A DNA stretch of 64,000 bases, from contig PLNR01000011.1 of the NCBI GenBank assembly GCA_003141835.1, positions 107,804-171,803 on the forward strand, read 5' to 3'. Origin of the DNA: Candidatus Omnitrophota bacterium (lineage in GTDB: Bacteria; Omnitrophota; Gorgyraeia; Pluralincolimonadales; Pluralincolimonadaceae). The notes beneath the pieces are model-generated. The model was not told where the DNA came from. It searched no databases and saw only the letters and a list, made by a program, of their open reading frames with translations. Both the position numbers and the translations under genes were made by a program. Below, piece by piece: positions 5,731-30,243 of this stretch; within the stretch, counting starts at the first letter, position 1, and each line of letters opens with the position of its first letter.

Positions 5731-5732
5731 AT

Positions 5733-6725: not shown

Positions 6726-6743
6726 TATCTTATTTTCCCGCGC

Positions 6744-9066: not shown

Positions 9067-9080
9067 GTTGTTTATCTTTT

Positions 9081-12343: not shown

Positions 12344-12349
12344 TATCGC

Positions 12350-14004: not shown

Positions 14005-15007
14005 TTTTTACCGGCCTCCCGTTTTTATCGAGGGACTTTTGCGCGGCGGTCAGCACCCTCAGGACCTGCAACCCGTTCTTTCCGTCAGTCACGGGCCTCG
14101 TATTGTTCTTTATTGAATCGATGAAATGCTGGCATTCGACTTTTAAGGGCTCGACCATGTCGATCCTGGGTATATGTATATCCCCCTCGCGTATGGTCAG
14201 GAACGCGTCATAACTGCTTTGCCCCTTCTGCCAATCGACGCCTTTATCGTAAACGCGTATCTTTTCCGTCGCTTCCATATCGTCGAATACGACCATTTTC
14301 TTCGAACCCACGACCGTAAATTTCCTTACCTTATGGGGGTCGAGCCAGCTGGCGTGAATGTGCGCCATCATCTTGTTATCGAAATTCAGCGACACGAAGA
14401 CCACATCTTGTACCGAATCGCGGATATAGCATTTGCCCGTGGCCGAGACCTCTTTCGGCATCTTATCAGCCAGGTAGATGGCGAGCGATATGTCATGGGC
14501 TGTCAGGCTCCATAAGGCATTCTCCTCGGCCCTCACCTGCCCCAAGTTCACGCGGGTGGAATACATGTAATTCAGATCCCCCAACGAACCGTCTTCGATG
14601 TATGATTTAAGTTTCTTCGCGGCGGGATGGTAAAGCAGCAAATGGCCTACCATAAGGATCTTTTTGCTCTTCTCCGCCATCCTGACCATCTTTTCCGCGT
14701 CTTCAACGCTCAGCGCCAGGGGTTTTTCTACGAATACGTGTTTCCCGGATGAGAGCGCCTTTAACGTGAGCCGGGCGTGGGTCTCGGAGGGCGTGGTTAT
14801 GACGACCCCGTCTATCTCTTTGTCTTTTATTATGTCGTCGAAATCATGTGTAAACTTTGTGCCGCACCTGAGGCTCTCCGGAATTTTATCCAAAGCCTCC
14901 TTATTTTTGTCGCAGCAAGTCTTTAAGCAGCAATTTTTCAAGCCCGAAAAGACCCTGAAATGATTTTTACCCCAGAAACCCACTCCTGCCTGGCCAAGTA
15001 CGATCAT
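13991..15007 (-). CDS. Gfo/Idh/MocA-family NAD-dependent sugar-nucleotide oxidoreductase (WbpB-like).
   Basis: N-terminal Rossmann motif [12 protein letters not shown] with an EKPLALS-type motif. 338 aa. Confidence 0.8.
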
Positions 15008-16131
15008 TGCGGACCTCCTCTTCGTTCTGTCAGTTCCCGATACAGCCCTTCAAGGCTTTGGACATAATCTTTGGGCAAGTAAGCCGACTCAATCTTTTTT
15101 CTCGACCTGGCGGCGAAATCGCCGCGCAATGGTTTGTCGTTATACAACTCCAAGATCCTGTTTTTCAAAGCTTCAGGGTCTCCGGGCGGGACTAAAAACC
15201 CGTCCTCCCCTTCTCTTACGATTTCGGGTATGCCGCTGATATCCGAGGCCACCACCGGCAGTCCCGTATACATCGCCTCGATCAAAGTACGCGGGAAACC
15301 TTCCTGCAAAGACGGCAGGACAAACACATCCATCGCCTTCATAAGCCCGGGAATATCAAACCTGGCCCCTAAGAAAACTACTTTGTTTTCGATCCCCAGG
15401 GACCGGGCCAGGGCCGTCAATTCCGCCCTGCTCTCCCCTTCGCCTATGATAAGTGTTTTCAGCCGCGGTATCTGCCCATCGAGCCCCTTGACAGCTTCTA
15501 TCAAGAACCTGTGCCCTTTTTTAGGGATAAGCGAACCTACGGTCCCGACTATGAAATCTTCGCCAGAAAACCCGTATTTTTTCCTTAGGGCCTCTTTCGT
15601 CCCGGGAATATTAAATCTCTCCGCATCCACCGCGTTGTAGATAAGATAAAATTTATCTTCAGCTATGCCTTCCTGCTTACGGGTAAAATCCAGGACAGAC
15701 CTGGAGCAGACGATGATCCTGTCGGTGAAACCGGCCAATATCCTGTCCAGGATAACGTGGTAAAATTTCTTCTCCGTATACATGCTTCTTTCCTCGGTCA
15801 CGATAAAGCGCGGATTACAAAACAGCGAGGCGGCCCTCCCGAAGAAATTTGCATAAAAAAGCGACGTATGCAAGATATCCGGCTTCTCCTTCTCCAGGAT
15901 CAAGGCTATCTTTCTTATCAAAGATATGTTAAAGAGCCTCGCCTTGCTATCCAGGCATGTCACCTTGAAGCCCAGCTTTTCGATCTCTTCCGCGATCCGC
16001 CCCTTCTTTTCTATGCTGACTACGCTGCAGTCGAAACGGCTTTTGTCTATGTTCTTTAAAGTCGTCAGCAGGCCCACTTCCGCGCCGCCGTAATCCAAAT
16101 GCACAAAAAGGAAAAGGACTTTTATCTTCAT
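15004..16131 (-). CDS. Glycosyltransferase, GT4 family.
   Basis: GT-B fold with the C-terminal EGFPRTLIEAMYTGLPVVASD motif. 375 aa. Confidence 0.82.
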   Translation of the reverse strand: MKIKVLFLFVHLDYGGAEVGLLTTLKNIDKSRFDCSVVSIEKKGRIAEEIEKLGFKVTCLDSKARLFNISLIRKIALILEKEKPDILHTSLFYANFFGRAASLFCNPRFIVTEERSMYTEKKFYHVILDRILAGFTDRIIVCSRSVLDFTRKQEGIAEDKFYLIYNAVDAERFNIPGTKEALRKKYGFSGEDFIVGTVGSLIPKKGHRFLIEAVKGLDGQIPRLKTLIIGEGESRAELTALARSLGIENKVVFLGARFDIPGLMKAMDVFVLPSLQEGFPRTLIEAMYTGLPVVASDISGIPEIVREGEDGFLVPPGDPEALKNRILELYNDKPLRGDFAARSRKKIESAYLPKDYVQSLEGLYRELTERRGGPQ

Positions 16132-16973
16132 CTTAATTTTTTAAGGATGAGGCTGAATTGGGGAGCGCAAGCCGGGAAAAAGACCTTATTGACCGTCCCG
16201 GCGGCCCTTGGCCGCTCTTTGTAATGATAGATTATTTTAGCCTCGTACCCCTTAAAAACGCCTTTAACCAGGCCCGGTATATCGAACCCTTTACCGGGGT
16301 CTATCTTTTTCCCCGCGTTAGGCGAATGTATATCGACGTATTTTAACAGCTCCGCAACAGGTAAAGGCTTCCCGATAGTCTTGTCCGAGAGCAGCCTCTC
16401 GTTCACTCGCCTGCATATCGCTTCATATGAAGGGCCGGCTTTTGAAGCACCTCCTATCCTGGCGATGATCCTGTAGAGCAATGACAAGGGCCGGTTCGCC
16501 CAAAACTTCCGGTTCGCCTCAAAACCTATCACCAGGAAGCCGCCGTCCTTTAAAACACGCCCTGCCTCCCCGGCAAAGCTTTCAATAGAGGGGAAATGGT
16601 GCATCGCCGCGTTACAGGTGACGATATCGAAGGTCCCGGCCTTAAAAGGCAGGTTTTCCGCATCGGAAATTATATAGCCGAGGCGCACACCCCTGTTTTC
16701 GTTCGACTGCCTTGTCTTGTTAAGCATCCCGAAGGAGATATCTGAACATATAAAATTGTATTTCCCGGCATTTAAGCTTGACGGGACCAGGCCTGTGCCC
16801 GTGCCGATGTCCAGGATATCCGCGTGTTCTTTGCCTTTGAAATAACCTTCAAAAAAACTTTTATAGAAAAGGGACTCGGCATCGATCCTGGACCTGTGCC
16901 TTTTTTCAAAGAACGCCGCTTCTTCGTCATGAAAATACCGGTTGATCTTTTTAATAAGCGCGTTTTCCGTCAT
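16128..16973 (-). CDS. Class I SAM-dependent methyltransferase.
   Basis: ILDIGTGTGLV motif I and AAMHHF post-II motif. 281 aa. Confidence 0.75.
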   Translation of the reverse strand: MTENALIKKINRYFHDEEAAFFEKRHRSRIDAESLFYKSFFEGYFKGKEHADILDIGTGTGLVPSSLNAGKYNFICSDISFGMLNKTRQSNENRGVRLGYIISDAENLPFKAGTFDIVTCNAAMHHFPSIESFAGEAGRVLKDGGFLVIGFEANRKFWANRPLSLLYRIIARIGGASKAGPSYEAICRRVNERLLSDKTIGKPLPVAELLKYVDIHSPNAGKKIDPGKGFDIPGLVKGVFKGYEAKIIYHYKERPRAAGTVNKVFFPACAPQFSLILKKLR

Positions 16974-16991
16974 TTTTATCCCTGTATTCCC

Positions 16992-18017
16992 TTAGAAGAC
17001 TCTTTGAAAAATAAACCGTGCTAAAAGGTTAAAATCATAAGGGTGCGTCCTCAATGCTTCTAAAAAATAACGCCTGGCGCTGATGGCATCGTTCCTCTTC
17101 GAATAAGCCATCGCTATAATATACTTAAATCTTGACGTCATTTTATTTATCTCCCCGGAGCGTTTATTACAAACACCCATAAAAGCATAAAAGACTTTTT
17201 CCATAGCCTTCACTCCATTCCCCATCTCCTCGTCCCCCAGAGAAACAGGAGAATGGAATGTCTTAGATATGCTTATCGCCTCTTCATTAGATATATTTAT
17301 GCCGGCAAGGGTAAGGGCGTTTTTTTTAATGATCTTAGAAGCCTCTAAAATAAATCTCTCGGCTCTGTGTATAGCGCTCGAGGAGTTGCTATGCATCCTC
17401 AAAGACACCAAGGGTTCTTCTATGTTGGTAAACTCGTAACCGGCCTCCAACGCTCTCGACCATAAATCATAATCTTGGCCCAATACAAAACTTTCGTCAT
17501 ACCCGCCAAGGCTCAATAACGCGTCTTTACGTATAATAACGGAAGAATGGATCATGGGGTTGCTGAACAGTATTTCCATCCTTAAACGAAAACCATCGCA
17601 GGAGGCGTGCACCTTGCCTGTTCTTTTTCCGTTCTCATCTATGACAATAGCTGATGTCCCTAACAGCGCGATATCATGCCTGTTTATTAAAAAATTTATC
17701 TGCTTTTGAAATCTGTGTTTATTACAAATGTCATCCTGGTCCATCCTGGCCACAAACTCGCCTGCGGCAGATTCGATCGCCAGATTAAGCGATTTCGACT
17801 GACCGATATTCAAATTGTTTTGAAGAAACCTGATCCTGGAATCTTTATAGCTTTTAATTTTTTCTGGAGAGCCGTCCGTGCTGGCATCGTCTATAATAAT
17901 AAATTCAAAATCGCCGTATGTCTGGCCCAAAACGCTTTCTATGGCGCGTGCCAGGAACTTTTCCCCGTTATATACAGGCATCGCTACGCTTATCTTTACC
18001 GGATATTTATCTGTCAT
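16992..18017 (-). CDS. Glycosyltransferase, GT2 family.
   Basis: VSVAMPVYNGEKFL…FEFIIIDDASTDGS. 341 aa. Confidence 0.85.
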   Translation of the reverse strand: MTDKYPVKISVAMPVYNGEKFLARAIESVLGQTYGDFEFIIIDDASTDGSPEKIKSYKDSRIRFLQNNLNIGQSKSLNLAIESAAGEFVARMDQDDICNKHRFQKQINFLINRHDIALLGTSAIVIDENGKRTGKVHASCDGFRLRMEILFSNPMIHSSVIIRKDALLSLGGYDESFVLGQDYDLWSRALEAGYEFTNIEEPLVSLRMHSNSSSAIHRAERFILEASKIIKKNALTLAGINISNEEAISISKTFHSPVSLGDEEMGNGVKAMEKVFYAFMGVCNKRSGEINKMTSRFKYIIAMAYSKRNDAISARRYFLEALRTHPYDFNLLARFIFQRVF

Positions 18018-18898
18018 TTCGCCGAAACGCCGGAGTAGTCATTCAATAAGTAATCCCTCAGCGCGTCCTTCCAGTTACGCATACCGTCAAGCCCGATCTC
18101 TTTCAGGCGAGAATTCTCCATGGCTTCTGACCGCCCCCTGGGAGCCGGCAACGGAAACACGGAAGAGCTTACCGGAACTATCTCGACTTTGTTCAGCCCC
18201 AGGATATTCTTGATTTCGAGCGCTATATCATATCGCGAAACCATCCCATGATTGGCCATGTGGTATAGCCCGGGGCTGCCTCTCTCTATCAACTTTCCGG
18301 TGCATGCCAGGAGATCCTTGGCATAAGTCAGGCTTCCGAATTTATCATTTACGGCCTTGATGGAATTGGATCCGGCCATCATGCGCGCTATCTTCCCGAC
18401 AAACTTAACATCCTTGCCGCCGCCACCCACCATCCATCCTGCTCGTATTATAAAATAATCTTTGAGCCGCGAAGCAATTATACCTTCGGCCTCAAGTTTA
18501 GTTTTACCATAAAAATTCAACGGCCCTGTCTTGTCCGCCTCTATATACGGAAGCGGTTTCGAACCGTCAAAAACCGCGGCGGAACTTAAAAATACAAGCT
18601 TCACCCCGTTATTCTTACAGGCTGACACGACGTTTTCCGTGCCCGTGACATTGACCTTACGAGCCCAATCCCTGTCAGTTTCACATCTATCAACATCCGT
18701 AGCGGCAGCGAGGTGCAGCACCAGGCCAGGAGAAGTTTTTTCTACCGCGATCATTACAGAATCGCGATCGCATATGTTTAAATCTGCCAAGTCGGTAAGT
18801 ATGCATTCGGCATCATTAAATACCTGTTTCACATAACTGCCGACCATGCCGGAACCGCCGGTAACCAAAATACGGGTTATGCTATTAATCTTCGGCAT
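18014..18898 (-). CDS. RmlD-like NAD(P)-dependent 4-ketosugar reductase (dTDP-4-dehydrorhamnose reductase family). Second copy in the window.
   Basis: VTGGSGMVGSY and HLAAATDVDRCETD resemble the RmlD substrate-binding region. 294 aa. Confidence 0.68.
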   Translation of the reverse strand: MPKINSITRILVTGGSGMVGSYVKQVFNDAECILTDLADLNICDRDSVMIAVEKTSPGLVLHLAAATDVDRCETDRDWARKVNVTGTENVVSACKNNGVKLVFLSSAAVFDGSKPLPYIEADKTGPLNFYGKTKLEAEGIIASRLKDYFIIRAGWMVGGGGKDVKFVGKIARMMAGSNSIKAVNDKFGSLTYAKDLLACTGKLIERGSPGLYHMANHGMVSRYDIALEIKNILGLNKVEIVPVSSSVFPLPAPRGRSEAMENSRLKEIGLDGMRNWKDALRDYLLNDYSGVSAK

Positions 18899-20370
18899 GA
18901 CGATATTCCTTTTTTTATCAGGCCCAAAGGATCGTTGAACATTTTGGCAGCAAGTTTCCTGGAAAATAATACAGGGTGTTTTTTATAAAATTCCATCTGG
19001 AGGTAGCTGTAGCCCTCTTCGAATATCTTTCTGACATCATCACCGCTCCATTTATCCGTGGAAATGGAACAGCTTGTGATATATAAGTTATCTAAAAATG
19101 ATTTTTCGTCGATATAGCCTTCCTTAAGGGACCTCGCGTAAAGCTCCGATCCGGGATAAGGCGTGGCCACGGAGACAAAAGGCTTGTAGATGCCGATTTT
19201 TTTTGCGAAATTGTAGCTGTCCCACATCTCGCCGACCGTCTCTCCGGGCATGCCTATTATAAGAAAAATGTTCGCATCAAGGCCTATGCTTTTCGCGTGC
19301 TTAATAAGGACTTCGACCTTTTTTAAATTAACGGGTTTTTTTATCACATCCCTAAGGACCCTTTCACTGCCCGACTCTACTGCAATATTAAGCTTGTAGC
19401 AGCCGGCCTCTTTCATTTTGTCGATAAGACCCTCGGTAAGCGCGAAAGCGGCGACGCCGTTAGGAGTATCCCATTTGAAATCCAGTTTTTCTTTTATCAT
19501 GAGATCGAATATCTCTTCGGCGCGGTTGACATCGAGGGTTACATTATCGTCTTCAAATAAAAGTTCCTCTATTTGATATTTTTCTTTAAGGTCCCTCATT
19601 TCTTCTATAACATTCATAGGGGATCTTTTCCTGAACGTCTTTCCCCACACATGATGGGCAGTGCAAAAACTGCAGCCCACCGGGCATCCTCGCGAGGTTA
19701 TAATGGGGGAAAATCTGCGGCACATCCTTTTGCCGTGCGACGCCTCCAGGCCAAAGTATTTCTCCATGCTTAATAAATGCCTTGCAGGGAAAGGGATGCT
19801 ATCGAGATCTTTAATAAACCGCTGTTTGGGAATAATTTTGATAATATCTTTATCCCTATATCCTATGCCGTCAAGGCTTGAGAGATCCGCCCTTCCTTCT
19901 ATAGCCCCTATTAAAGCTATCAGGCTCTCTTCTCCTTCGCCAAGCACAACGTAATCCACATTTTTGTCCGCCAATACATTCTCCGGCATCACCGTGGCAT
20001 GCGCCCCGCCAGCAATTACGATAATATCTTTACTGACATTTTTTGCAATCCTGTATATATCGTGAGCATTCCTTCTCTGCCTTGTAAAGAGATTATTTAC
20101 TCCTACGATATCAGGAGCGAAATTTCTTATAATACTTTCAATTTCGTCAATCCCCAGCCCGATCTTTATAATATTCTCCGCCACATCGGTCCTTGAGTCC
20201 CAGCCTTCTATCAGGCAATCGACGATTTTTACCTGAATACCGTTTTTTTCTAAAACACTTCCCAGATACGCAAGCCCAAGCGGAGGGAGCGGATTGATAT
20301 CTAATAAGTCCTTAAAGGTAAACGCGGATGGTGTAAAAAGAAGTATTTTTTTTATTTTTCTTTTAAGCAT
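18877..20370 (-). CDS. B12-binding (class B) radical SAM enzyme.
   Basis: N-terminal cobalamin-binding Rossmann region (PLPPLGLAYLGSVL…VKIVD) plus the CxxxCxxC motif TSRGCPVGCSFC. 497 aa. Confidence 0.85.
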   Translation of the reverse strand: MLKRKIKKILLFTPSAFTFKDLLDINPLPPLGLAYLGSVLEKNGIQVKIVDCLIEGWDSRTDVAENIIKIGLGIDEIESIIRNFAPDIVGVNNLFTRQRRNAHDIYRIAKNVSKDIIVIAGGAHATVMPENVLADKNVDYVVLGEGEESLIALIGAIEGRADLSSLDGIGYRDKDIIKIIPKQRFIKDLDSIPFPARHLLSMEKYFGLEASHGKRMCRRFSPIITSRGCPVGCSFCTAHHVWGKTFRKRSPMNVIEEMRDLKEKYQIEELLFEDDNVTLDVNRAEEIFDLMIKEKLDFKWDTPNGVAAFALTEGLIDKMKEAGCYKLNIAVESGSERVLRDVIKKPVNLKKVEVLIKHAKSIGLDANIFLIIGMPGETVGEMWDSYNFAKKIGIYKPFVSVATPYPGSELYARSLKEGYIDEKSFLDNLYITSCSISTDKWSGDDVRKIFEEGYSYLQMEFYKKHPVLFSRKLAAKMFNDPLGLIKKGISSCRRLIA

Positions 20371-21634
20371 ATGACTTCGGAGATTCCCCTATGCTTTCAT
20401 AAAGCGCTAAATACCTGCTTATCATCCTATCCAATGTGAAGAGCTTGTCAAAACGCTCGCGGGACGCCTTCCCCATCTTGATGCGCAGATTATCGTCGGA
20501 TATCAGGCTCACCATGGCGGTCTTGATAGCCTCGGCGTCTTTAGGCGGAACCACGATCCCGGTGATCCCGTTTTCAATCTCTTCCGGTATGCCTGCGACG
20601 TCCGTTCCTATTACGGGAACGCCTAACGACATGGCCTCAAGGATCACGAACGGCAGGTCCTCATAGCCGATGGACGGCAGGAGCAGAAAAAGGCTTTTTG
20701 CGATATAATCGATACAATCATCCCGTTGGCCCATAAAAATTATATTTTTATCAAGTCCTTCCCGCGACACGAGCTCCTTTATCTCTCCTGACATGGGCCC
20801 CTCTCCCATCAGGATGAGCTTAACGCCGGATAATCCTTTATTCTCCTGCAGCATTTCTTTAAAAGCCTCGATCGCGTACTTATGCCCTTTTCTCTCCTCA
20901 AACCTTGCGGCTATCGATACAATCCTGTCGTTTTGGACTTTCATATTACCGGCGGCAAGATTCGAATCGGGATTGCGAAGAGCGCCTTCTATCCCGTGAG
21001 GCAGGGTAATGATCTTCTTAGGGTTAAATCCCCTATTTACGGCCAGGGCCCTCCCAGCCGCCGCGGAGGCCGTGGTGATGGCATCGACGCTCCTGCGGAC
21101 AAGGCTATCTATTACGCGGTCGATATATCCCGTATCCTTAAAAGCGATATTATTCACGCTCATTATAACATTTCTTGCGCCCGCATTTTTTGCGGCGACC
21201 GCAGCGGCACGGCAGCTTAAGGATGCCGGGTAACCCCCGTTATTTATATGGACAATTTCGGGTTTATTCCTCAAGAAGATGAAATACAATATAATATAAT
21301 CATAGATGAATATAAAGGGCGAGAGTAAAATGAATATTTCGGTTATCAGTTTCTTGAGGATTTTTAAAGCATATCTATTCTTTACCATTTCCCATAAGTA
21401 GATATTGACTGTATTTATATCGAATAAATTTATGCCCAATAATTTATCCGCCGGGAAATCGGGGTGGTTTATGCGCATACCTTTCGTATATTCTTTTGTC
21501 ATCCGGTAGACCAGCAGGTAATCGTACCTGGATACGAATGCCTGCGAGGCCATGACCTCAAACATGGACTTTTCGCATCCGCCGTATACAAGACAGTCCG
21601 TATAATATACCACACGCCGATTATTTGTTTTCAT
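20363..21634 (-). CDS. Glycosyltransferase, GT4 family, with a hydrophobic N-terminal segment.
   Basis: GT-B C-terminal domain (…MGEGPMSGEIKELV…ILEAMSLGVPVIGTD). 423 aa. Confidence 0.75.
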   Translation of the reverse strand: MKTNNRRVVYYTDCLVYGGCEKSMFEVMASQAFVSRYDYLLVYRMTKEYTKGMRINHPDFPADKLLGINLFDINTVNIYLWEMVKNRYALKILKKLITEIFILLSPFIFIYDYIILYFIFLRNKPEIVHINNGGYPASLSCRAAAVAAKNAGARNVIMSVNNIAFKDTGYIDRVIDSLVRRSVDAITTASAAAGRALAVNRGFNPKKIITLPHGIEGALRNPDSNLAAGNMKVQNDRIVSIAARFEERKGHKYAIEAFKEMLQENKGLSGVKLILMGEGPMSGEIKELVSREGLDKNIIFMGQRDDCIDYIAKSLFLLLPSIGYEDLPFVILEAMSLGVPVIGTDVAGIPEEIENGITGIVVPPKDAEAIKTAMVSLISDDNLRIKMGKASRERFDKLFTLDRMISRYLALYESIGESPKSYA

Positions 21635-22440
21635 GGCTTAAAAATAAGGCCCTGGCCCGTAGGCAGGGACAGCACTTCCACTCCCTTCTCTTTCGCGAAT
21701 TTATCGAATGCCTTTTTCTGCAAAAAGTACGGTTGCCAGCCGTAGTCATCAAGCACTATCACCGCTCCGCTGACAAGCTTATCCCAAAAGAATTCGGCGG
21801 CCGCTATTTCCGGCGTCACGCAATTCATGTCTATCGACAGGAAGGAGACCTTTACCGTATCCGCCTGCGGCAACGTCTCCGGGATCGGGCCCCTGATTAT
21901 CTTGACGTTCGGGAAGTCCTTGAAAGTCTTTTTCACTCCCTCATAGCATTCCTCGTAACGGGATCCGGGCAGCCTGCCGAGCTTCTTCTCCTCTTCTATG
22001 GTATATTTTTCCGAAAAACCGCAGAAAGTGTCCAATAAATAAAATTTTTTGTTTAAACGGTTAAAATCCACGTAATGCACCACCGCCCGGGAGAACCAGC
22101 CCCTGTAGACGCCGCATTCCACGAAATCGCCTTCCAGGTGTTTTGCGTGAGAGGCGGCCCAGCAAAGCACGTGGATTCTCCAGTGCATCTTTCCTTCGTT
22201 TGCGGAAAATTTTATCCCCCGGTATGTAGCCTCGCCGAGCTTATACGCCTCGATGAATAATTTGTCTTTCATGAAATCACCATTATGCTGGGTCGCCAAG
22301 CCGTCTTGGTTATAGGTGAGCGGGCCCTGGACTAACCTGAGATTAAAGATCCTCCTTATGTATTCGATCATATTCCTGACCGGCTTGACTTCAAGCAGCT
22401 GCCTGATCACCGGTGCTTGTTTAATAAATTTCTTTATCAT
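21631..22440 (-). CDS. TylF/MycF-family (Methyltransf_24-like) SAM-dependent sugar O-methyltransferase.
   Basis: FVECGVYRGWFSRAV and VIVLDDYGW motifs are typical of macrocin-O-methyltransferase-like enzymes. 269 aa. Confidence 0.68.
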   Translation of the reverse strand: MIKKFIKQAPVIRQLLEVKPVRNMIEYIRRIFNLRLVQGPLTYNQDGLATQHNGDFMKDKLFIEAYKLGEATYRGIKFSANEGKMHWRIHVLCWAASHAKHLEGDFVECGVYRGWFSRAVVHYVDFNRLNKKFYLLDTFCGFSEKYTIEEEKKLGRLPGSRYEECYEGVKKTFKDFPNVKIIRGPIPETLPQADTVKVSFLSIDMNCVTPEIAAAEFFWDKLVSGAVIVLDDYGWQPYFLQKKAFDKFAKEKGVEVLSLPTGQGLIFKP

Positions 22441-23246
22441 TTATCTCCTCCCAGCCTTACATCAGCCGTTTCCGGCCGTTCTTTCTTTAAAACCGCCAAA
22501 TAATCCGAATATCTGCATAATTTAGAAGCCGCCCCCGTAAAAATCCTGTAGAAAAAATATAATGGTCCGAAAAGATTCCCTACTATGCTCCTTTTAATTT
22601 TAAAAACTGTGGTATTATTTTCCCATTTGTTAGCTATGGTGTCATAGTAATGCCGGCTTGTTTCGCATATGTGCCTTCTGAGCAGCCAGGTATTCTTGAT
22701 ATAGGCCAGCTCTTCTATCCTGAACCCAAGCCTTCCGCTCAATTGCGACAGGCATTGCGGGTCTATCCAGCATGTATGCTCCGGGTTGACGATGAAATTC
22801 TTATTGAAAGAGACATAATGGAACTCGCCGCAAAAAAACGGGTTAGGCGTCGTTACGATGAGGATGCCTTCCGGTTTAAGCAGCCTCTCGCAATTGGAAA
22901 AGAAACCCTCAAAATTCACAAGATGTTCCAGGAGGTCGCCGGCGACGATCACGTCGAATTCTTCCGCTATATCAAGAGGTTTCGTCACATCCCCGAAGAC
23001 CAGGTCGTAACCGTGGGAATTTAGCTTCGCTATCTCGCCGGGCAGGTAATCGAGCCCCACCACCTTCTTCGCGACCGCCTTTATCCTTTTGTGGAGCCAA
23101 TTCTCGTCCTTAAGCGCGAATTCCGCAGTATGCCTTATGCAGCCCAGGTCGAGCACGACCTTTCCCCTGCACCTGTCGCAGATAAAGGACTCCCTATTGA
23201 CCGGCTTAGACTTTTTTATCATATCCGCAAGCTCGAACTTATTCAT
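22437..23246 (-). CDS. Class I SAM-dependent methyltransferase.
   Basis: VVLDLGC motif I and VIVAGDLLEHL motif II. 269 aa. Confidence 0.7.
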   Translation of the reverse strand: MNKFELADMIKKSKPVNRESFICDRCRGKVVLDLGCIRHTAEFALKDENWLHKRIKAVAKKVVGLDYLPGEIAKLNSHGYDLVFGDVTKPLDIAEEFDVIVAGDLLEHLVNFEGFFSNCERLLKPEGILIVTTPNPFFCGEFHYVSFNKNFIVNPEHTCWIDPQCLSQLSGRLGFRIEELAYIKNTWLLRRHICETSRHYYDTIANKWENNTTVFKIKRSIVGNLFGPLYFFYRIFTGAASKLCRYSDYLAVLKKERPETADVRLGGDK

Positions 23247-23261
23247 GGCCCCTCCTCGGCT

Positions 23262-24746
23262 TCATAACGCGCCTGAACGCAAAATTTTTAACCAAAAATC
23301 CGCGTAGATTATCGGTGTTATGACGAGTTCTTTGAGCAAAAAATCCAGGTAGGCGAGTTTTCTTTTGGACCTGAGCACTGCCATCCAATACTGTCGATCG
23401 GCTTTAAACATATTCATTTCGATAGGCGCATATATGCCATATTTAATCCACCAGCTATTGAGCAAAGTATTGAAATTGATATTGTGCTTCGACATCCTGT
23501 ACTCTTCCGGAGGATTAAGGCGGTCCAGCCTCCAATACTGCTCCTTGGGGATAGGAGCTTTTAAGTATTTATCATAAAAAGCGGTGCCGGGATAAGGCTG
23601 TGTAACTCCCACGGAAATATAGGTCGGCTTTATTCGCGCCAACAGCTTATAGGACATCTCCAGGTCATCTTCCGTTTCTCCGGGCAGATTAAGCAGCATA
23701 TTAGCAAAAGTCCTTATGTTGTATTTCCTGCATAAGGAAAAGGCGTTGACTATTTCGGGTATGCTTATCTTTTTGTTGATCGTTTCCAGTAATTTCGGTG
23801 AACCCGTCTCGACGCCGAAATCGAGCTGTATGCATCCCGCTTCTTTCATCATCCTTACGATCTTTTCGTTCTTTAGGCAGTTTACCCTTGTATCGGCGGC
23901 CCAGAGCATCCTTAACCCGCTTTTGCGGTAAGCATCGCAAAACTCTATTATGTCCGCCTCGGTCATCCCGAAAGTATCATCAAGGATATAAAAAAAATCG
24001 AAATGGTATTTATCCTGCAATATGCGCAATTCTTCCATTACGCGGGCCATCGGCCGCTTCCTGGCCAGGGGCGGGCCGCCAGGGACTTTATCCATGGCTT
24101 TCCATACCGCGTTCGAAGCGCAAAAACCGCAATTATAAGGGCATCCCCGCGATGTTTGTATTACGGCGGTAGACACTATCAACCGCCTTATGATAAGTTT
24201 TGTCGGTTTCGCGTTCCATTCCATATCTATCATGTGATAGGCAGGCATTCCGCATTCACTGAGATCCATGAACTCCCTGTTGCCGTTTATTTTAACTGCG
24301 CCGTTATCCAGGTACGCTATGCCCTTTATGCGGCTATTATCCTTATTCTCGTCATATTCTTTAAGGACCTGCTCCAGGGTAAGCTCCCCCTCCCCGCGGA
24401 CGACCAGGTCGAAAGGGCTGCCATCATATAAAAAATCCTGCGGAGAGACCGAAGGGTGCGCGTTCCCTACGATAATTTTTGAACCGGTCTCCTCTTTTAT
24501 CTTTTTCGCCAGCTCGACTATCGCGTTGTAGTCGGTCACAAATGCTGCCAGCCCAACATAGCGCGGCTTCTTTTCCTTTATTTCGCGCATTATGATGTTT
24601 ACATTCGCCTCGATACTTTTCTCATGCGGGTCGGCTATCCCGACCTTGAAACCCTTCTTTTCCAGGTATCCGGCCAGGTAGAGGTAATAGAACGGCATAT
24701 ACCTGCTTCTTGCGTTTGAGGGCGAAACTACGAATAGTATATCCAT
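23262..24746 (-). CDS. B12-binding (class B) radical SAM enzyme.
   Basis: N-terminal B12-binding-like domain with SRGCPYNCGFC. 494 aa. Confidence 0.85.
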   Translation of the reverse strand: MDILFVVSPSNARSRYMPFYYLYLAGYLEKKGFKVGIADPHEKSIEANVNIIMREIKEKKPRYVGLAAFVTDYNAIVELAKKIKEETGSKIIVGNAHPSVSPQDFLYDGSPFDLVVRGEGELTLEQVLKEYDENKDNSRIKGIAYLDNGAVKINGNREFMDLSECGMPAYHMIDMEWNAKPTKLIIRRLIVSTAVIQTSRGCPYNCGFCASNAVWKAMDKVPGGPPLARKRPMARVMEELRILQDKYHFDFFYILDDTFGMTEADIIEFCDAYRKSGLRMLWAADTRVNCLKNEKIVRMMKEAGCIQLDFGVETGSPKLLETINKKISIPEIVNAFSLCRKYNIRTFANMLLNLPGETEDDLEMSYKLLARIKPTYISVGVTQPYPGTAFYDKYLKAPIPKEQYWRLDRLNPPEEYRMSKHNINFNTLLNSWWIKYGIYAPIEMNMFKADRQYWMAVLRSKRKLAYLDFLLKELVITPIIYADFWLKILRSGAL

Positions 24747-24749
24747 GCC

Positions 24750-26285
24750 TCAGGCCTTGGCCAATTTGGCGAACAGGCCGTTGACATAGTCCCTGAAATA
24801 ACCGGAAAAAACATAATACAAGCATAAGGCGCCGAATGACGCCAGCCCTCCGGCGCATATCACGATCAACAGGTCCATCTTATTTTTATCGGCCGGCATG
24901 AACCTGCCTGCATAAGCCAGTACGCCCACTAAAAATAATGTGGGGATCACGGCAGGGCTGATGACCTTTTTAATGAGATCTACGGTTTTATATTTTAAAA
25001 AATCATTCATCAGGATAAAATACAGAACAGCGGAAACCGTGAACGCGATGAACTTAAACACTGCAAAAGCAAGTATGCCCATTGAAGAATAGGTCGCTAA
25101 TATCCCGCCCCAATAAATAATGACCGCGATAACGGCGATCGCGCCCATAGCTTTGACCCTTACCTGCGTCGTGACCAGGATGCCGGCTGGCTGGACGAAA
25201 AAATTATACACCCAGCTCATAACCAGGAATTGCGCTACCAGTATCGACGGTACATAATTAGCGCCTACCCAGCAAAGGATCACCGGCCTCATCAGAACCA
25301 CTATGCTGACTACGGGGAATACCACTAAAGGAAGAGTCAGGACGATAACGCTGTAGATGATCCTCCGCAGGCTTGCCATGTCATTTTGCCCCATAAAATG
25401 GTTAAAACGGGCCAGGAAGGGGCCGTAAATAACCCCGAGTATACCCCTGAAAAATCCCATGACGGTCAGCCCCACCGCATAGAGCGCGGCCATCTCCGCT
25501 CCGGATAATTTACCGATCGCAAACAGGTCCAATTCATAATAAAGTATGCAGACCAACGTAGTGAAAAAAGTGCCGAACGCGAGCCTTTTAGTCCGGTTAT
25601 AGATCTCTCCTGAAAACCTGAAAGACCTCGCCAGAAGGCCGAAATCGTAATGGTATTTGGCCTTTATGATGCCCAGGAAAATGATATTGGCTATTAATCC
25701 CGTGGACTGGTAAAACAGGAAATATCCCACGATATCATATTTGCTGCCGTTAAAAAAATAGAACACCGAACACACCCTCGCCAGGTTGACCAGGATGGAA
25801 AGCCTCTGGTAGATATAATCTTCCAGCCTTATGCCGAAGACTATCTGGCATAACTTTTGCAGGATGACGGTCGGCGAAAAGAGCGAAAGAATCAGTAATA
25901 ACCTTGAAGCGACGGCTATCTCCTTTGCGTCATTGAGATTTTTTATCAACAGATGGGGATCGAATGCGAAGACCAGGATGACCATCGAGAACAAGAGGAC
26001 GAAAATAAACAGGACAAAACTCACAAAACCGAGTATCCTTATCTCTTCCTTCAGGTCGTTAATGGCGAATTGCTCGCTTACGTATTTAAACGCGGCGCCC
26101 AAAAACCCGATATCCGCGTATGTCAGGAAAAAGGTGACTGAGACGCATATAGAATAGATGCCGTAGATCGCCGGGGCGCTGGTAAGTTTCGGTATCACTA
26201 TGAAAAGCGAAAGGAACCCGAGCAGGATCGAAATGCCTTGCCAGAGGTATATCTTTACATAATTTTTCGTATACGATTCTTGCAT
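24750..26285 (-). CDS. wzx: Oligosaccharide/polysaccharide flippase (Wzx, MOP superfamily).
   Basis: 511 aa with about 12-14 TM helices and a polysaccharide-biosynthesis-protein topology. Sits inside a glycosyltransferase cluster. Confidence 0.75.
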   Translation of the reverse strand: MQESYTKNYVKIYLWQGISILLGFLSLFIVIPKLTSAPAIYGIYSICVSVTFFLTYADIGFLGAAFKYVSEQFAINDLKEEIRILGFVSFVLFIFVLLFSMVILVFAFDPHLLIKNLNDAKEIAVASRLLLILSLFSPTVILQKLCQIVFGIRLEDYIYQRLSILVNLARVCSVFYFFNGSKYDIVGYFLFYQSTGLIANIIFLGIIKAKYHYDFGLLARSFRFSGEIYNRTKRLAFGTFFTTLVCILYYELDLFAIGKLSGAEMAALYAVGLTVMGFFRGILGVIYGPFLARFNHFMGQNDMASLRRIIYSVIVLTLPLVVFPVVSIVVLMRPVILCWVGANYVPSILVAQFLVMSWVYNFFVQPAGILVTTQVRVKAMGAIAVIAVIIYWGGILATYSSMGILAFAVFKFIAFTVSAVLYFILMNDFLKYKTVDLIKKVISPAVIPTLFLVGVLAYAGRFMPADKNKMDLLIVICAGGLASFGALCLYYVFSGYFRDYVNGLFAKLAKA

Positions 26286-26289
26286 ATAT

Positions 26290-28071
26290 TTATCTATTAA
26301 CCAGGTTATCGATCAGGCCCAGTATCTTCCCTTCCGTTCCTTCTTTATACATATAATGCTTATAAAAGGTATCGTCCCGTTTTTTCTCCAATTCGCCCTT
26401 CATGAAAAGATCGATCTTTGCGATGGCCTCAGCGGTATCTTCGCAATAATGGACGCGCCTTTTCAGTTCTTCGAGAGCCTTCGCCTCATACGGATTCAGC
26501 GGGTCGTCCATTAGGAATATCTCGGCATCAAGAGGTAAAACATCAAATAACGGCTGCGACGGGACCTCTATTAAAACGGCCTTGGGCGAGTATTCCAGGA
26601 GAAAATCGGTCAGGGATACGTTATCGACGACCTTTAAATTATTGAGCCTCTCAAAGACCGACCAGGCGGAGCAGTTCAGGTAACCGGAATCTATAAACGG
26701 TTTTATATAGATATCCCGCGATTTTAACGAATTGAGGTGTTCCAGAAGGGTTATCTGCCTTTCAACCACCATATCCGGGGAGATCCTGTCCATCCCGGAC
26801 TCAAACATGGAGATGCTCACCGTTATCGGGAACAGGAAGTCTATCTTCCTGGAAGCCTTTTCGTATTTTACTATTTTTGTTTTTCCTAACGGCAGGATCT
26901 CCGCTTTTATCTTTATCGAGGGATATACCCTCTCCAGGTCTTCCCTGGTAAATCCCCAGCTGATAAAATGATCGCACCTGTTAAAATCTGTTTCCACGTT
27001 CCACGGAGAAAGCGCTTCGCCGTAAAGGCAGCCGTGCTGCGAACCCACGACCTTTATGCCTTTTGACGATAAATATTCGAAGATCATGGCCCTTGACCTC
27101 CATGACGGAGAGACCCCCCATATCCCCAGGGAAACAGGATGTTTCATGTTGATCATCTCGATCGAACGAACGGCATTCAAATACCGGTTCCCGTTAGCCG
27201 CGAAGTCCTCCTCAATATTTTCCAAAAGGAGTTTCACGAACGGGTCGGTGTCGTCCTTGATAAAACCCTTGCTCCTGAGGTCCAAATTTACGTCATAAGT
27301 TAAGCGTTGCGTTCCGAATCCCAGAAATCCTTCTTCCCTGAAGTCATAATATAAAATATTATACTTATTTAAGCTGTTAACCAGGAATTCCAACTCATAT
27401 AAAGGCTCGCTTATCAATACGGTCTTCCTGTCATCGCGGAATCTCTTGAATCCATATTTATGGACGGCAACGGCTATTCCCTTTAATATAAACCTGAAAT
27501 TGCGGCCTTTCAGCCTCCTGAGCGCGTTCATTATCCTTTTCATCCCGCGCCCTGGTCCCGGGATATCCTTATCCGCCGGGATCTCTATGATATCGGTCCG
27601 GATGCCCGCAAAAAACAAAGGTACCAGGTCGCTTACGGAGGTACTTACATTTAAGAATTTATTAAACCTGTAATCATAAAACAATATCTTTTCCGGCTTA
27701 TGGACATCCGCCGCCCTTTTGACGCAATCCACGAACGTGGCGTATCCCAGCAGCTGCAGTCCGCAATAGAAAAAATATAACGGGGTAAAATAATCCAATT
27801 TGAGGTTAAACTTCTTATTCAATGACGGCGAAAGGCCGGAATCTAAATTTTTTAACAGGCCGCCTACCGTTTTTGCGCACTTCTCCCTCATGCTGATCAA
27901 TTCTTCGGTAGGCAGGAATCCGCTCAAACATTTACAATCCAGGCCGTGCTTTTCTTTAAGGTAAACATCTACGCTGGAATGCGTGGAAAAAAGCACATTG
28001 CCTTCGAAAAACTTATTTTCAACGCAGTGCCTCGCGTCGGATACGCTATGGAGAATGACGGCCGTTCTCAT
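26290..28071 (-). CDS. Large hypothetical protein (593 aa) with no recognisable family. Candidate novel glycosyltransferase or nonulosonate transferase.
   Basis: Uninterrupted ORF tightly packed between wzx and a radical SAM gene. No diagnostic motif found by eye. Confidence 0.5.
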   Translation of the reverse strand: MRTAVILHSVSDARHCVENKFFEGNVLFSTHSSVDVYLKEKHGLDCKCLSGFLPTEELISMREKCAKTVGGLLKNLDSGLSPSLNKKFNLKLDYFTPLYFFYCGLQLLGYATFVDCVKRAADVHKPEKILFYDYRFNKFLNVSTSVSDLVPLFFAGIRTDIIEIPADKDIPGPGRGMKRIMNALRRLKGRNFRFILKGIAVAVHKYGFKRFRDDRKTVLISEPLYELEFLVNSLNKYNILYYDFREEGFLGFGTQRLTYDVNLDLRSKGFIKDDTDPFVKLLLENIEEDFAANGNRYLNAVRSIEMINMKHPVSLGIWGVSPSWRSRAMIFEYLSSKGIKVVGSQHGCLYGEALSPWNVETDFNRCDHFISWGFTREDLERVYPSIKIKAEILPLGKTKIVKYEKASRKIDFLFPITVSISMFESGMDRISPDMVVERQITLLEHLNSLKSRDIYIKPFIDSGYLNCSAWSVFERLNNLKVVDNVSLTDFLLEYSPKAVLIEVPSQPLFDVLPLDAEIFLMDDPLNPYEAKALEELKRRVHYCEDTAEAIAKIDLFMKGELEKKRDDTFYKHYMYKEGTEGKILGLIDNLVNR

Positions 28072-29474
28072 GATGACTTAGCCGGAGAAGACCCGCGTGA
28101 TAAACCATCTTTGGGTTTTTGATATGTGACGGTCTTGAAAACGGAATCCAGCTTCAATCCCAAATGCACCGCTAATCTTCTCAGTTTCTCTTCAACGATC
28201 GAGACAAATTCATTATCCGGCATCCCGGTAAGGTTGACATGGAAATCCTGCCTGTCCCCTATCCTCTCCAGGTACCCGATCTCATCGGTTATGCGGCCGT
28301 TTTTCCTCGCCCAATCATATATCGGGGTGCCCGGCAAAGGCAGCAGAAAACCGACGCTTGGATACATCCGGCATTCCTCGCAAACCTCGATGGTGCGCTG
28401 GATAGTTTCAGGCGTTTCCTGCGGATAGCCGAAAATTACGCTTGTCAGGGGGGTGACGCCTCCATCCCACAGCGCCCTCGACTGCTCTATGATCTGCGGG
28501 ACCGAGATCTTTTTATTCATCGCGGACAGAATCCCGGGGTCGGCGTTCTCCAAAGAAAAAGCGATGTTCTCGCAACCGGCCTCTCTCATTCTCTTTATCA
28601 GGTCCAGGTCTTTCTTCTTGAAGAGATCTCCTCTCGAGGTGGCTTCCCATTTTATCTTAAAATCCAGGCTTTCTATTATCCCGACCATCTGCTCTACGCC
28701 TTTTATGTTAGGGAAGGTCAACTCGTCCCAAAAAGAAACGTAATTGCAATTGTACTTGCCGTGGAGCCTGTTAAGCTCCCCGGTGAAAGCCCCTTCGGAA
28801 TACCTCCTGTATTTCTCCCCTTTAAAAACATGGTAACAAAAAGTGCAGTTGAACGGGCATCCCCTCGCGTAATTCAACGGATACGACAGGGCTTTCTCCG
28901 AGGAAAAATTATTTACGTTTATATACCCGTATTCGTCATATTTGGCCAGTTCGAACAGGTCCCAATCGGGAAATCCGAAAACATCCAATGACGGCGCGAC
29001 AGGCCGTTTTTGCGTATAGACTATCCTGTCTCCATCCTTAAATACGATGCCTTCTACATCCGACAACGGGCTCTTCGCTTCTATCGCCTTCATGAGCTCT
29101 ACGACCGTTATGTCGCTTTCGCCCATGACAGCTATGTCAACCTTTGTATTTTTTAAGAGAAGTTCGGGGATAGATGTAGCGACGGAATTTCCCGCCATTA
29201 TAACGGCCTTGGGGTTAGTCTTTTTCACGATATCGGCAATCTGCCTAACCAGCTTGAACCCGGTCACTATGCATCCGAGGCCGTAAACATCGTAAGGCCT
29301 GCCGGCCAGGATCTTTTCCAAGTCGGAAATAGTGAGGTTGTTAATATCCATGTCTATAAGGTCGAATTCAAAGCCTGCTTTTTTTATTGCGGTCATTATA
29401 TAACCGAGGCCGACAGGAAGCTGCCTTCTTTTTGAACCTGGCCTTAGGGATGGATTAATAAAAACGATCTTCAT
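28068..29474 (-). CDS. B12-binding (class B) radical SAM enzyme.
   Basis: N-terminal LPVGLGYIMTAIKKAGFEFDLID (B12-binding-like) plus ARGCPFNCTFC. 468 aa. Confidence 0.85.
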   Translation of the reverse strand: MKIVFINPSLRPGSKRRQLPVGLGYIMTAIKKAGFEFDLIDMDINNLTISDLEKILAGRPYDVYGLGCIVTGFKLVRQIADIVKKTNPKAVIMAGNSVATSIPELLLKNTKVDIAVMGESDITVVELMKAIEAKSPLSDVEGIVFKDGDRIVYTQKRPVAPSLDVFGFPDWDLFELAKYDEYGYINVNNFSSEKALSYPLNYARGCPFNCTFCYHVFKGEKYRRYSEGAFTGELNRLHGKYNCNYVSFWDELTFPNIKGVEQMVGIIESLDFKIKWEATSRGDLFKKKDLDLIKRMREAGCENIAFSLENADPGILSAMNKKISVPQIIEQSRALWDGGVTPLTSVIFGYPQETPETIQRTIEVCEECRMYPSVGFLLPLPGTPIYDWARKNGRITDEIGYLERIGDRQDFHVNLTGMPDNEFVSIVEEKLRRLAVHLGLKLDSVFKTVTYQKPKDGLSRGSSPAKSS

Positions 29475-29481: not shown

Positions 29482-30243
29482 TCAACTCCACCTGTGAAAA
29501 ATTATCATTGTCTCTTTTACTTCGTTGAAGCCGTTCTTAATATAGGTGTTTTGGGCGGAGACGTTCTTTGCCTGTGTCCCTACCGTGAGTTCCGTTGCCT
29601 GCAATTTTTTTGCGGCGTAGCGGAGCAAGGCCGAGCCGATCCCTTTTCCCTGAAATCTCTTTAAGACGGCTACGAAGAAAAGCCTGGAGCGCTTTCCGTC
29701 CCGGCTGACGTTGGCCAAGACCGCACCGGCTGTTTCATTGCGGAACTTGGCTATGAAGATGCGCCCGGCCTTCGAAGGCCTGAAGCATTTTATGTAATTT
29801 ATCCAGAGCAGGTCCGCTTTTTCTTTGGGGATACGGGTATCCGAATGGAACCTAGAATACCTGAAAACGCCCCCAAGCTCCTCACAGGGAAGGCCTTCGT
29901 TCTTTTTCAATTCAAGCACCTTTACGCCGGGCGCCAAGGACGGATCTTTTGCCTTCCCGCCGGCATATTTGAACGTGATCTCGGTATCTATGTAGGCGAA
30001 GCCCATAGTCTGTAAAAATGCTATCGATCCATTATCCGAATCTGCGGGGATCTTGACCGTCACGAAACTATTTTTGAGCTTACCGGCTGCCATGGCCCTT
30101 ATTTTAGCCGAAGGCACAAGTATGGAATTATCCGCGTCCAGGAGATAACAATCCCTCCCGAAGAAAACGGTATCCCATTCCAGGAACTTGAAATGATATA
30201 CGGCGCCGCCGGCTTTTAGCGTGATATCTTTAGAGGATGCCAT
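29482..30243 (-). CDS. GNAT-family acetyltransferase, candidate PseH-like N-acetyltransferase.
   Basis: FQGKGIGSALL acetyl-CoA loop. Lies immediately downstream of the PseG-like and PseI-like genes. 253 aa. Confidence 0.6.
   Translation of the reverse strand: MASSKDITLKAGGAVYHFKFLEWDTVFFGRDCYLLDADNSILVPSAKIRAMAAGKLKNSFVTVKIPADSDNGSIAFLQTMGFAYIDTEITFKYAGGKAKDPSLAPGVKVLELKKNEGLPCEELGGVFRYSRFHSDTRIPKEKADLLWINYIKCFRPSKAGRIFIAKFRNETAGAVLANVSRDGKRSRLFFVAVLKRFQGKGIGSALLRYAAKKLQATELTVGTQAKNVSAQNTYIKNGFNEVKETMIIFHRWS

Follow-up and report, generated by a model that had tools for sequence, protein, structure and literature searches.

Class B radical SAM enzymes as candidate sugar-tailoring enzymes in a surface-glycan operon of an uncultured Omnitrophota bacterium

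What are three B12-binding radical S-adenosylmethionine (SAM) enzymes doing among the genes for a bacterial cell-surface glycan? The question is raised by a stretch of 64,000 nucleotides (nt) from a Candidatus Omnitrophota bacterium (assembly GCA_003141835.1, contig PLNR01000011.1, positions 107,804 to 171,803; called the window, with positions counted from its first letter), which holds one very long operon of about 42 kb for a cell-surface glycan of this uncultured organism. Three of its genes code for class B (B12-binding) radical SAM enzymes: rSAM1 (18877..20370, 497 amino acids (aa)), rSAM2 (23262..24746, 494 aa) and rSAM3 (28068..29474, 468 aa), all on the minus strand, as are all other window genes described here. 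A first-pass annotation of the letters had placed three such enzymes at exactly these coordinates and had read the locus as making a surface glycan with multiple C- and O-methyl groups. The surface-glycan operon and the radical SAM enzymes as a functional part of it were borne out by recurrent sugar-gene neighbours in unrelated taxa, while methylation itself was not established. All three enzymes are very likely glycan-sugar tailoring enzymes, because their family-specific synteny is conserved across bacterial and archaeal phyla. With less assurance, we lean towards the fuller statement that they are dedicated enzymes, one per sugar branch, which act by cobalamin-dependent C-methylation.

Architecture, fold and relatives of the three enzymes

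Both domains of the class are present in each protein: rSAM1 scored 79.0 bits against PF02310 (B12-binding) and 87.4 bits against PF04055 (Radical_SAM), rSAM2 58.5 and 75.3 bits and rSAM3 56.2 and 58.1 bits, with Pfam gathering thresholds of 32.1 and 29.5, respectively. A single CxxxCxxC motif was found per protein (C229/233/236 in rSAM1, C202/206/209 in rSAM2 and C206/210/213 in rSAM3), and with E-values of 1e-15 to 1e-24 the domain assignments are not chance matches. Mutual identity among the three is 23-29%, so they represent three lineages and not recent duplicates. Their solved relatives detected by sequence were distant (E 1e-15 to 1e-5) and comprised MgmA/QCMT (9ccb), AprD4, TokK, CysS, OxsB and TsrM. 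AlphaFold (AF2) models of rSAM1 (pLDDT 88) and rSAM3 (pLDDT 83.5), searched with Foldseek, matched only class B structures over their full length (TsrM, TokK, OxsB, MgmA, CysS and AprD4; TM 0.6-0.79), with TsrM first, and OxsB and MgmA among the best, for rSAM3. The fold search supports the class B architecture, and methylases and non-methylases were ranked together in it.

Homologues at identities of at least 50-70% were found for each enzyme, with more than 100 clusters each among the matches listed. Their hosts include Omnitrophota, Chloroflexota, Planctomycetota, Nitrospirota, Elusimicrobiota, Methanoregula, Methanosarcinales and Thorarchaeota, and in the databases they are named only generically or as BchE or YgiQ. 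For the rSAM1 lineage, 58 genome loci were recovered, all of them from metagenome-assembled or single-cell genomes, which is the likely reason why these families remain unstudied. Class B as a whole comprises 83,589 sequences in over 100 groups, the biggest of which are still unexplored (PMC12931638, 2026).

The first-pass annotation had called the arrangement very unusual, which proved overstated: among 32 related genome loci no shorter than 15 kb, 21 have at least two B12 radical SAM genes and 12 have at least three. The locus is one case of a recurrent, unstudied pattern and is unusual only in comparison with studied model organisms. In DPANN archaea (Woesearchaeota, Pacearchaeota, Nanoarchaeota), Paceibacterota and Verrucomicrobiota, 2-4 B12 radical SAM paralogues were seen within about 20 kb (loci L044-L067), and several of these sets adjoin CDP-glucose nucleotidyltransferase/dehydratase and glycosyltransferase genes; multi-B12-radical-SAM glycan loci appear common in ultra-small lineages.

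Two features of the families lie outside the domains used for classification. Beyond the CxxxCxxC motif, the rSAM2-family alignment has four invariant cysteines (C270, C290, C305 and C339) and the rSAM3-family alignment two invariant (C68, C365) and two near-invariant ones (C301, C368), which could coordinate an auxiliary cluster or metal site. The rSAM3-family profile also matched proteins of 1,000-2,331 aa (P0376, P0383, P0395, P0401, P0407, P0436, P0447 and P0472), most of them matching in several places, a pattern suggestive of giants in which multiple radical SAM units are fused; according to a 2026 preprint on Omnitrophota genomes, the modules of giant proteins include radical SAM domains.

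Sugar-gene neighbourhoods in the operon and across phyla

According to the called open reading frames (ORFs), a minus-strand gene train fills nearly the entire window. The contig as a whole is a 222-kb metagenome assembly, and its DnaJ shares a cluster of at least 90% identity with the DnaJ proteins of Candidatus Omnitrophota metagenome-assembled genomes. Its 38 genes run from 41926 down to 128 with no intergenic gap longer than 18 nt and with many overlaps. The neighbours of the three radical SAM genes were compared between this operon and the genome loci of their relatives, namely 28 loci of the rSAM1 family and, for rSAM3, 14 close loci (at least 55% identity to the window protein) and 49 in a wider set (at least 40%).

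rSAM3 directly follows a nonulosonic-acid module (29482..41926) delimited by Pfam and NCBIfam matches. From its low-coordinate, operon-distal end the module consists of a GNAT gene, a PseG-like gene, a NeuB-type synthase, an AsnB-like amidotransferase, a 128-aa protein of unknown type and a WbuX amidotransferase, and it continues towards the operon start with a hexapeptide acyltransferase, a further AsnB-like gene, a nucleoside diphosphate (NDP)-sugar dehydrogenase-like gene, a DegT aminotransferase (PseC/ArnB-like), a radical SAM enzyme with a SPASM domain and a CMP-transferase. The NeuB-type synthase (PF03102, 247 bits), the CMP-transferase (PF02348, 81.9 bits) and the DegT aminotransferase (PF01041, 412 bits) mark it as a nonulosonic-acid module, and the WbuX protein scored 325 bits against TIGR03573 (cutoff 203). 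Assignment to a Pse, Leg or Neu sugar was rejected, as no equivalog cutoff was reached (NeuB 282 bits, below 399.65; PseI 215, below 340; PseG 103, below 153.55; PseC 355, below 423.5).

On its other side, rSAM3 overlaps by 4 nt the gene for a putative transferase of the LIC12162 family (26290..28071, 593 aa), which has a PF27859 match on record, 35.9 bits against TIGR04331 (below its cutoff of 225) and no transmembrane segments; a search of PDB sequences with this protein gave no match even at E<=1. We infer that it transfers the nonulosonic acid. rSAM3 would work in the nonulosonic-acid branch, and its gene comes after the synthesis genes and directly before those of the transferase and the probable flippase. 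The latter gene (24750..26285, 511 aa) codes for a protein with about 12 hydrophobic segments that matched the MOP-flippase profile NF007773 weakly (26 bits, cutoff 273) and gave no Pfam match. In L002, L005 and L009 the gene that occupies this position has a Polysacc_synt domain, and a MOP/Wzx-type flippase is the probable identity of the window protein. The first-pass view of radical SAM genes interleaved with glycosyltransferases and a flippase accordingly stands for the glycosyltransferases described below and, given the weak profile match, with some reserve for the flippase.

These neighbours recur. A NeuB gene lies within 10 kb of rSAM3 relatives in 64% of the close and 67% of the wider loci, compared with 11% for rSAM1; a CMP-transferase was found in 21% and 41% (rSAM1 7%) and a LIC12162 transferase in 50% and 16% (rSAM1 7%), being directly downstream of the rSAM3 homologue in 5 of the 14 close loci and also in L008 and L009. 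Metagenome loci repeat the window order AsnB, NeuB, PseG-like, GNAT, rSAM3, LIC12162, and in L007, L071 and L072 the module genes likewise stand in the window order with rSAM3 at the end. Ca. Magnetominusculus (Nitrospirota) largely keeps the window order without the LIC12162 gene. In Thorarchaeota and Ozemobacteraceae, rSAM3 stands next to a LIC12162 gene and a flippase beside nonulosonic-acid genes, in an order that differs from the window.

The additional radical SAM enzyme of the module (284 aa, SPASM/twitch domain, 40389-41243) lies between the DegT aminotransferase and the CMP-transferase genes. Its sole sequence relative in the PDB was BtrN, the butirosin radical SAM dehydrogenase (E 6.6e-10, twitch region). 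Genes resembling it adjoin NeuB and/or DegT in L004 and in 10-29% of the rSAM3-family loci, and in L006 such a gene adjoins methyltransferases and a second B12 radical SAM gene. The 284-aa protein may be the operon's fourth radical enzyme acting on sugars.

A different set of genes travels with rSAM1, namely a cassette of aminotransferase, CDP-glucose, 4,6-dehydratase, cupin and GT2 glycosyltransferase genes. A DegT-type aminotransferase is near rSAM1 in 79% of the loci (directly downstream in 16) as compared with 21% of the close and 41% of the wider rSAM3 loci. The corresponding values are 75%, 21% and 12% for the cassette GT2, 64%, 7% and 6% for the 4,6-dehydratase, and 50%, 0% and 0% for the small cupin. 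In the Clostridia cassette, the nucleotidyltransferase scored 333.7 bits, above the glucose-1-phosphate cytidylyltransferase cutoff of 300.25, and the dehydratase was closest to CDP-glucose 4,6-dehydratase. The rSAM2 family has a 6-deoxyhexose cassette of nucleotidyltransferase (highly conserved, 69-88% identity), 4,6-dehydratase, cupin, reductase and GT2 in 4 of its 8 homologous loci. Directly after rSAM2 come an SDR reductase and then a GT4 glycosyltransferase in L148 and L150, an SDR reductase in L006 and a GT4 in L123.

In the window, the two arrangements are merged in the order rSAM2, two methyltransferases, GT4, rSAM1, RmlD-like reductase, GT2. The GT4 (20363..21634, 423 aa; PF00534, 114.5 bits) aligns over 419 residues, at 31.5% identity, with the GT4 placed after rSAM2 in L150. 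The reductase (18014..18898, 294 aa; PF04321, 232 bits) is a second RmlD-like NDP-4-ketohexose reductase that scored 223.0 bits against the TIGR01214 rmlD cutoff of 224.05. The GT2 (16992..18017, 341 aa; PF00535, 111 bits) is a soluble enzyme without transmembrane segments, 27-30% identical to the GT2s that close the rSAM1 and rSAM2 cassettes, and a homologue lies downstream of the rSAM1 relatives in most loci. In the window, nucleotidyltransferase, dehydratase and cupin genes of the dTDP type lie apart, at 47.5-50.6 kb, within a stretch of precursor genes (43-52 kb) just upstream of the operon promoter. This dTDP-6-deoxyhexose set (47556..50642) consists of a small cupin, an RmlA-like gene (242 bits, below 360), RmlB (443.7 bits against TIGR01181, cutoff 365.1) and RmlD (267.8 bits, cutoff 224); the cupin (148 aa) is 39-44% identical to those of the rSAM1 and rSAM2 cassettes. 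The 43-52 kb stretch also has a second DegT gene and sugar dehydrogenases. The sugar on which rSAM1 and rSAM2 work probably comes from the dTDP-6-deoxyhexose set; both enzymes would act on 6-deoxyhexose or amino-dideoxyhexose units supplied by the RmlA/RmlB/cupin/RmlD genes together with the second RmlD-like reductase, with the GT4 and the GT2 of the merged arrangement as partner transferases.

Near rSAM1 homologues, a phosphoenolpyruvate (PEP)-mutase-like gene was observed in L002 (1540-2184, Chloroflexota), where it adjoins a LIC12162-family gene and a methyltransferase-kinase fusion, and in L026 (1193-1702, Planctomycetia); these genes suggest a phosphonate-decorated glycan in the two organisms.

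Methyl transfer weighed against other radical chemistry

If the three enzymes are methylases, the [4Fe-4S] cluster of the CxxxCxxC motif would cleave SAM to a 5'-deoxyadenosyl radical. This radical would remove hydrogen at an unactivated carbon in the sugar or in its N-acyl or acetimidoyl group, and methylcobalamin, bound in the N-terminal Rossmann domain, would then methylate the substrate radical. C-methylation is favoured because GenK, GenD1, Fms7 and MoeK5, the sugar-acting class B enzymes known to us, are all C-methylases, and because Fom3 sets a precedent for CMP-activated substrates among class B methylases. It is further favoured because C-methyltransferases are present in each class B group from which a member has been characterised (PMC12931638). 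In sequence alignments, the N-terminal domains of the three window enzymes match the cobalamin-binding domains of TokK, CysS, OxsB and MgmA; with AprD4, which like ArsL does not bind cobalamin (PMC12931638), only the radical SAM core aligns. This difference modestly favours true cobalamin binding by all three.

Several observations weigh against methyl transfer, and some of them point to a chemistry in which at least one of the three enzymes would tailor its sugar by a non-methylating radical reaction, such as an AprD4-like 1,2-diol dehydration with reduction (deoxygenation), an epimerisation, an oxidation or an OxsB/HpnJ-like ring rearrangement, with deoxy or rearranged sugars as products. 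The sugar diol-dehydratase AprD4 was the top structural match of the rSAM1 model (Foldseek E 1.3e-23; TM 0.71-0.79, TMt 0.77-0.79), followed by TsrM and TokK. rSAM1 overlaps the RmlD-like reductase gene by 22 nt and is translationally coupled to it, as AprD4 is paired with AprD3, and the SDR reductase after the rSAM2 homologues of L006, L148 and L150 mirrors the same pairing. The top NCBIfam profiles of rSAM2 and rSAM3 were those of the non-methylating BchE (TIGR02026; 149.7 and 140.7 bits, and 133.2 bits for rSAM1, cutoff 481.35) and HpnJ. Methylases and non-methylating class B members are inseparable by sequence or structure (PMC12931638), cobalamin binding cannot be read from sequence, and none of the three families has a characterised member. 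The window rSAM1 moreover stands without the adjacent aminotransferase/CDP-glucose cassette of most of its relatives, and none of the three enzymes reached a curated NCBIfam cutoff.

These points are balanced by others. Against the AprD4-family hidden Markov model (NF033070, cutoff 500) the three enzymes scored only 85.3, 73.8 and 39.7 bits, the sequence likeness to AprD4 stops at the core, and PF02310 is well above threshold in all of them. The curated profile closest to rSAM1 is that of a characterised methyltransferase family, Sden_1168/PhpK. Placement in non-methylating families such as anaerobic cyclases, which had been raised along with the first-pass annotation, received a divided answer: BchE was best for rSAM2 and rSAM3, yet at about 30% of its cutoff, and no methylase cutoff was reached either. 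On balance, we consider non-methylating tailoring by one or more of the enzymes less likely than methylation and the most serious of the alternatives.

The best profile of rSAM1 raises a further one, in which rSAM1 is a PhpK/Sden_1168-type P-methyltransferase that converts a glycan phosphonate into a phosphinate. The match to the Sden_1168 P-methyltransferase family (NF038361) is nearly full length and reaches 306.8 bits, only about half of the cutoff of 575 (rSAM2 98.1 and rSAM3 80.9 bits). PEP-mutase-like genes occur near the rSAM1 homologues of L002 and L026 as described above, but the window and the other rSAM1-family loci have no PEP mutase homologue, and the conserved partners of the family are aminotransferase and CDP-glucose genes and not phosphonate genes. 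We regard this role as very improbable. Least probable of all is that the three genes are chance passengers or hitch-hikers serving lipid, cofactor or peptide modification: related class B families do act on hopanoids, ladderane-type lipids, ribosomally synthesised and post-translationally modified peptides and tetrapyrroles, and public pipelines label homologues as BchE-like cyclases, but all those curated families were missed by wide margins, and the genes are translationally coupled within a gap-free operon and keep the same family-specific sugar neighbours across bacterial and archaeal phyla.

The remaining profiles gave no better placement. TIGR04072, a family of lipid-biosynthesis B12 radical SAM enzymes (cutoff 360) which the first-pass annotation had named as the type to look for, turned out not to be the family (126.7, 82.1 and 104.8 bits for rSAM1, rSAM2 and rSAM3), and the scores against TIGR04295, B12_rSAM_oligo (cutoff 400), were 66.4, 75.9 and 78.2 bits. 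Membership in BchE, HpnJ, TIGR04072, AprD4, PhpK or TIGR04295 was rejected, every cutoff being far off. The three enzymes have a class B architecture and yet stand outside all curated families of the class.

C-methylation by one dedicated enzyme per sugar branch remains the chemistry that we prefer. Tentatively, and with clearly less confidence than in that chemistry, we propose that the three enzymes are founding members of unrecognised cobalamin-dependent radical SAM families that C-methylate nucleotide-activated or lipid-linked surface-glycan sugars across uncultured anaerobes including Asgard and DPANN archaea, one of them being the first radical enzyme to tailor a nonulosonic acid. If so, the enzymes would yield surface sugars with a C-methyl group or an extended chain, and surface-glycan synthesis in such organisms would depend on vitamin B12. 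To our knowledge, C-methylated or chain-extended nonulosonic acids are undescribed.

Other genes of the operon and its surroundings

The methyltransferases of the operon had been counted as six by the first-pass annotation, five of class I plus a TylF-type enzyme. We find five, the gene at 21631-22440 being itself the TylF-like one and having been counted twice; three of the five lie between 16128 and 29474. The TylF-family (macrocin O-methyltransferase-like) enzyme (21631..22440, 269 aa) scored 51.3 bits against PF05711 (threshold 23; E 1.3e-13), and TylF-like genes also occur near the rSAM2 relatives in L149 and L098. The other four are class I SAM methyltransferases, at 5733-6725, 9081-9782, 16128..16973 (281 aa; PF08241, 78.6 bits; syntenic copies of 51% identity in L013 and L026) and 22437..23246 (269 aa; PF13489, 43.1 bits; PF08241, 40.3 bits). 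TylF-like and class I enzymes would add O- or N-methyl groups to the glycan. An Arn-like route, with undecaprenyl-phosphate-aminosugar transfer by a GT2, an ArnD-like deacetylase and PMT_2/ArnT-like proteins, was rejected as the main reading of the operon because the GT2 at 16992-18017 lacks transmembrane segments and is akin to soluble enzymes of the EpsE/TuaG type.

The distal part of the operon (128..16131), annotated by profile matches and by counting transmembrane segments, contains four GT4s, one GT2 and two PMT_2 proteins (GT-C-like, 11 transmembrane segments each). Among its modifying enzymes are two class I methyltransferases, a GFO oxidoreductase, a hexapeptide acyltransferase, a GNAT protein, a polysaccharide deacetylase and an AsnB-like amidotransferase, and a UDP-GlcNAc 2-epimerase and an epimerase/dehydratase are also present. 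Its 8-16 kb stretch is syntenic with L013 (Omnitrophota) and L026 (Planctomycetia). Because the AsnB-like protein at 128-2029 (676 bits, cutoff 817), the deacetylase at 9779-10768 and the GT4 at 20363-21634 all score best, below cutoff, against exopolysaccharide families of the XrtA/PEP-CTERM exosortase system, the operon product could be an exopolysaccharide rather than a lipopolysaccharide O-antigen; no exosortase gene was seen within the window. The operon combines three AsnB-like amidotransferases (128-2029, 32276-34171 and 36254-37930; 26-32% mutual identity) with the WbuX gene (34513-35631) and three accompanying NDP-sugar dehydrogenase-type genes, a set that suggests uronamide and acetamidino groups on the glycan.

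Transcription would run from a promoter through a helix-turn-helix gene and a NusG paralogue into the 38 tightly packed genes. The sigma-70-like promoter (43211..43183, TTGACA-17-TAAAAT) matches 11 of 12 consensus positions and precedes a wHTH/MarR-like gene (42539-43150) and the NusG paralogue (42026-42535); PF13412 and PF02357 matches are recorded for these operon-head genes. The three elements together look like an RfaH/UpxY-style operon-specific antitermination of the 42-kb transcript. Between 15 and 31 kb, internal promoter-like and terminator-like sites were no commoner than in shuffled sequence. The radical SAM core at 16-30 kb has a GC content of 0.45-0.49 compared with 0.50-0.56 elsewhere and in the flanks, which fits the variable surface-polysaccharide cassettes mentioned in the 2026 Omnitrophota preprint and is compatible with a horizontally exchanged, strain-variable cassette; radical SAM enzymes of the present type are not mentioned in that preprint. 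Upstream of the sugar genes (51967-58220) we observed a 755-aa OstA/LptD-like protein, a sign of a diderm envelope, together with a ROK kinase and two tandem GAF-GGDEF diguanylate cyclases. Two called ORFs overlap their neighbours by 139 nt (Epi43/DegT2, 43240-45287) and 97 nt (RmlB/RmlA-like, 48452-50208; GTG and TTG starts), and translation of DegT2 and RmlB probably starts further downstream than called.

Comparison with known systems

The first-pass analogy with antibiotic deoxysugar chemistry was apt in so far as GenK, GenD1 (GenD1/GntE), Fms7 and MoeK5, from gentamicin, fortimicin and moenomycin biosynthesis, act on sugars. We know of no other sugar-acting class B enzymes, and all four come from antibiotic pathways. 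The window enzymes resemble them in enzyme class, with a B12 domain and a radical SAM core, and their own sugar substrates are predicted. They differ from these actinomycete enzymes, which serve antibiotic pseudo-oligosaccharides, in being encoded in a surface-glycan operon, and the comparison is one of class and not of sequence. In the moenomycin pathway a methylase is combined with AsnB-like amidotransferases, and the window operon likewise has AsnB-like amidotransferases beside its class B enzymes. GenK, GenD1, Fms7 and MoeK5 are listed as characterised Csp3-methyltransferases in a survey that does not use the word sugar (PMC12931638), and none of the four is in the PDB.

Nucleotide sugars or lipid-linked intermediates are the probable substrates of the window enzymes. 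The use of a nucleotide handle, which we propose for CMP-nonulosonate and for CDP- or dTDP-hexoses, has its counterpart in fosfomycin biosynthesis, where Fom3 methylates the CMP-activated cytidylyl-2-hydroxyethylphosphonate; the likeness is one of substrate type, and the Fom3 substrate is a phosphonate and not a sugar. Sden_1168/PhpK (NF038361, TIGR04479) provides the best curated profile of rSAM1, which differs in its score at about half the cutoff, in its sugar-gene neighbours and in the absence of a PEP mutase from the window. SD1168 is a characterised methyltransferase (PMC12931638); our literature search for Sden_1168 found no paper. AprD4/AprD3 of apramycin 3'-deoxygenation shares with rSAM1 the fold, the (predicted) sugar substrate and an NAD(P)H reductase partner, comparable to the RmlD-like protein, and is set apart by AprD4's lack of cobalamin, by the low family score and by a sequence likeness confined to the core. 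BchE, the anaerobic Mg-protoporphyrin cyclase, has the same domain architecture as rSAM2 and rSAM3, which remain far below its cutoff and have no tetrapyrrole genes nearby; the BchE label is a generic COG-level annotation. TIGR04295 (B12_rSAM_oligo) and TIGR04157 (glyco_rSAM_CFB) are both uncharacterised hypothetical families, for which the window proteins are far below cutoff (TIGR04157: 74 bits for the GT4, cutoff 400); from their names alone, they suggest that curators had noticed B12 radical SAM genes beside glycan genes.

In full-text literature searches, we found no paper linking radical SAM enzymes with nonulosonic, pseudaminic or legionaminic acids, and nothing relevant on B12 (cobalamin) radical SAM enzymes in O-antigen, polysaccharide or nucleotide-sugar pathways. 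The locus and its conserved neighbourhoods tie three families without a characterised member to defined sugar branches, nonulosonic acids among them, which gives concrete candidate substrates and predicts new surface sugar structures in uncultured anaerobes. Many of the Omnitrophota, DPANN and Paceibacterota hosts are ultra-small and host-associated, and their surface glycan likely matters for attachment and for phage or host evasion. Compared with the known systems, the novelty as we read it is that sugar tailoring by class B radical SAM enzymes would extend from antibiotic pathways to those of surface glycans and nonulosonic acids.

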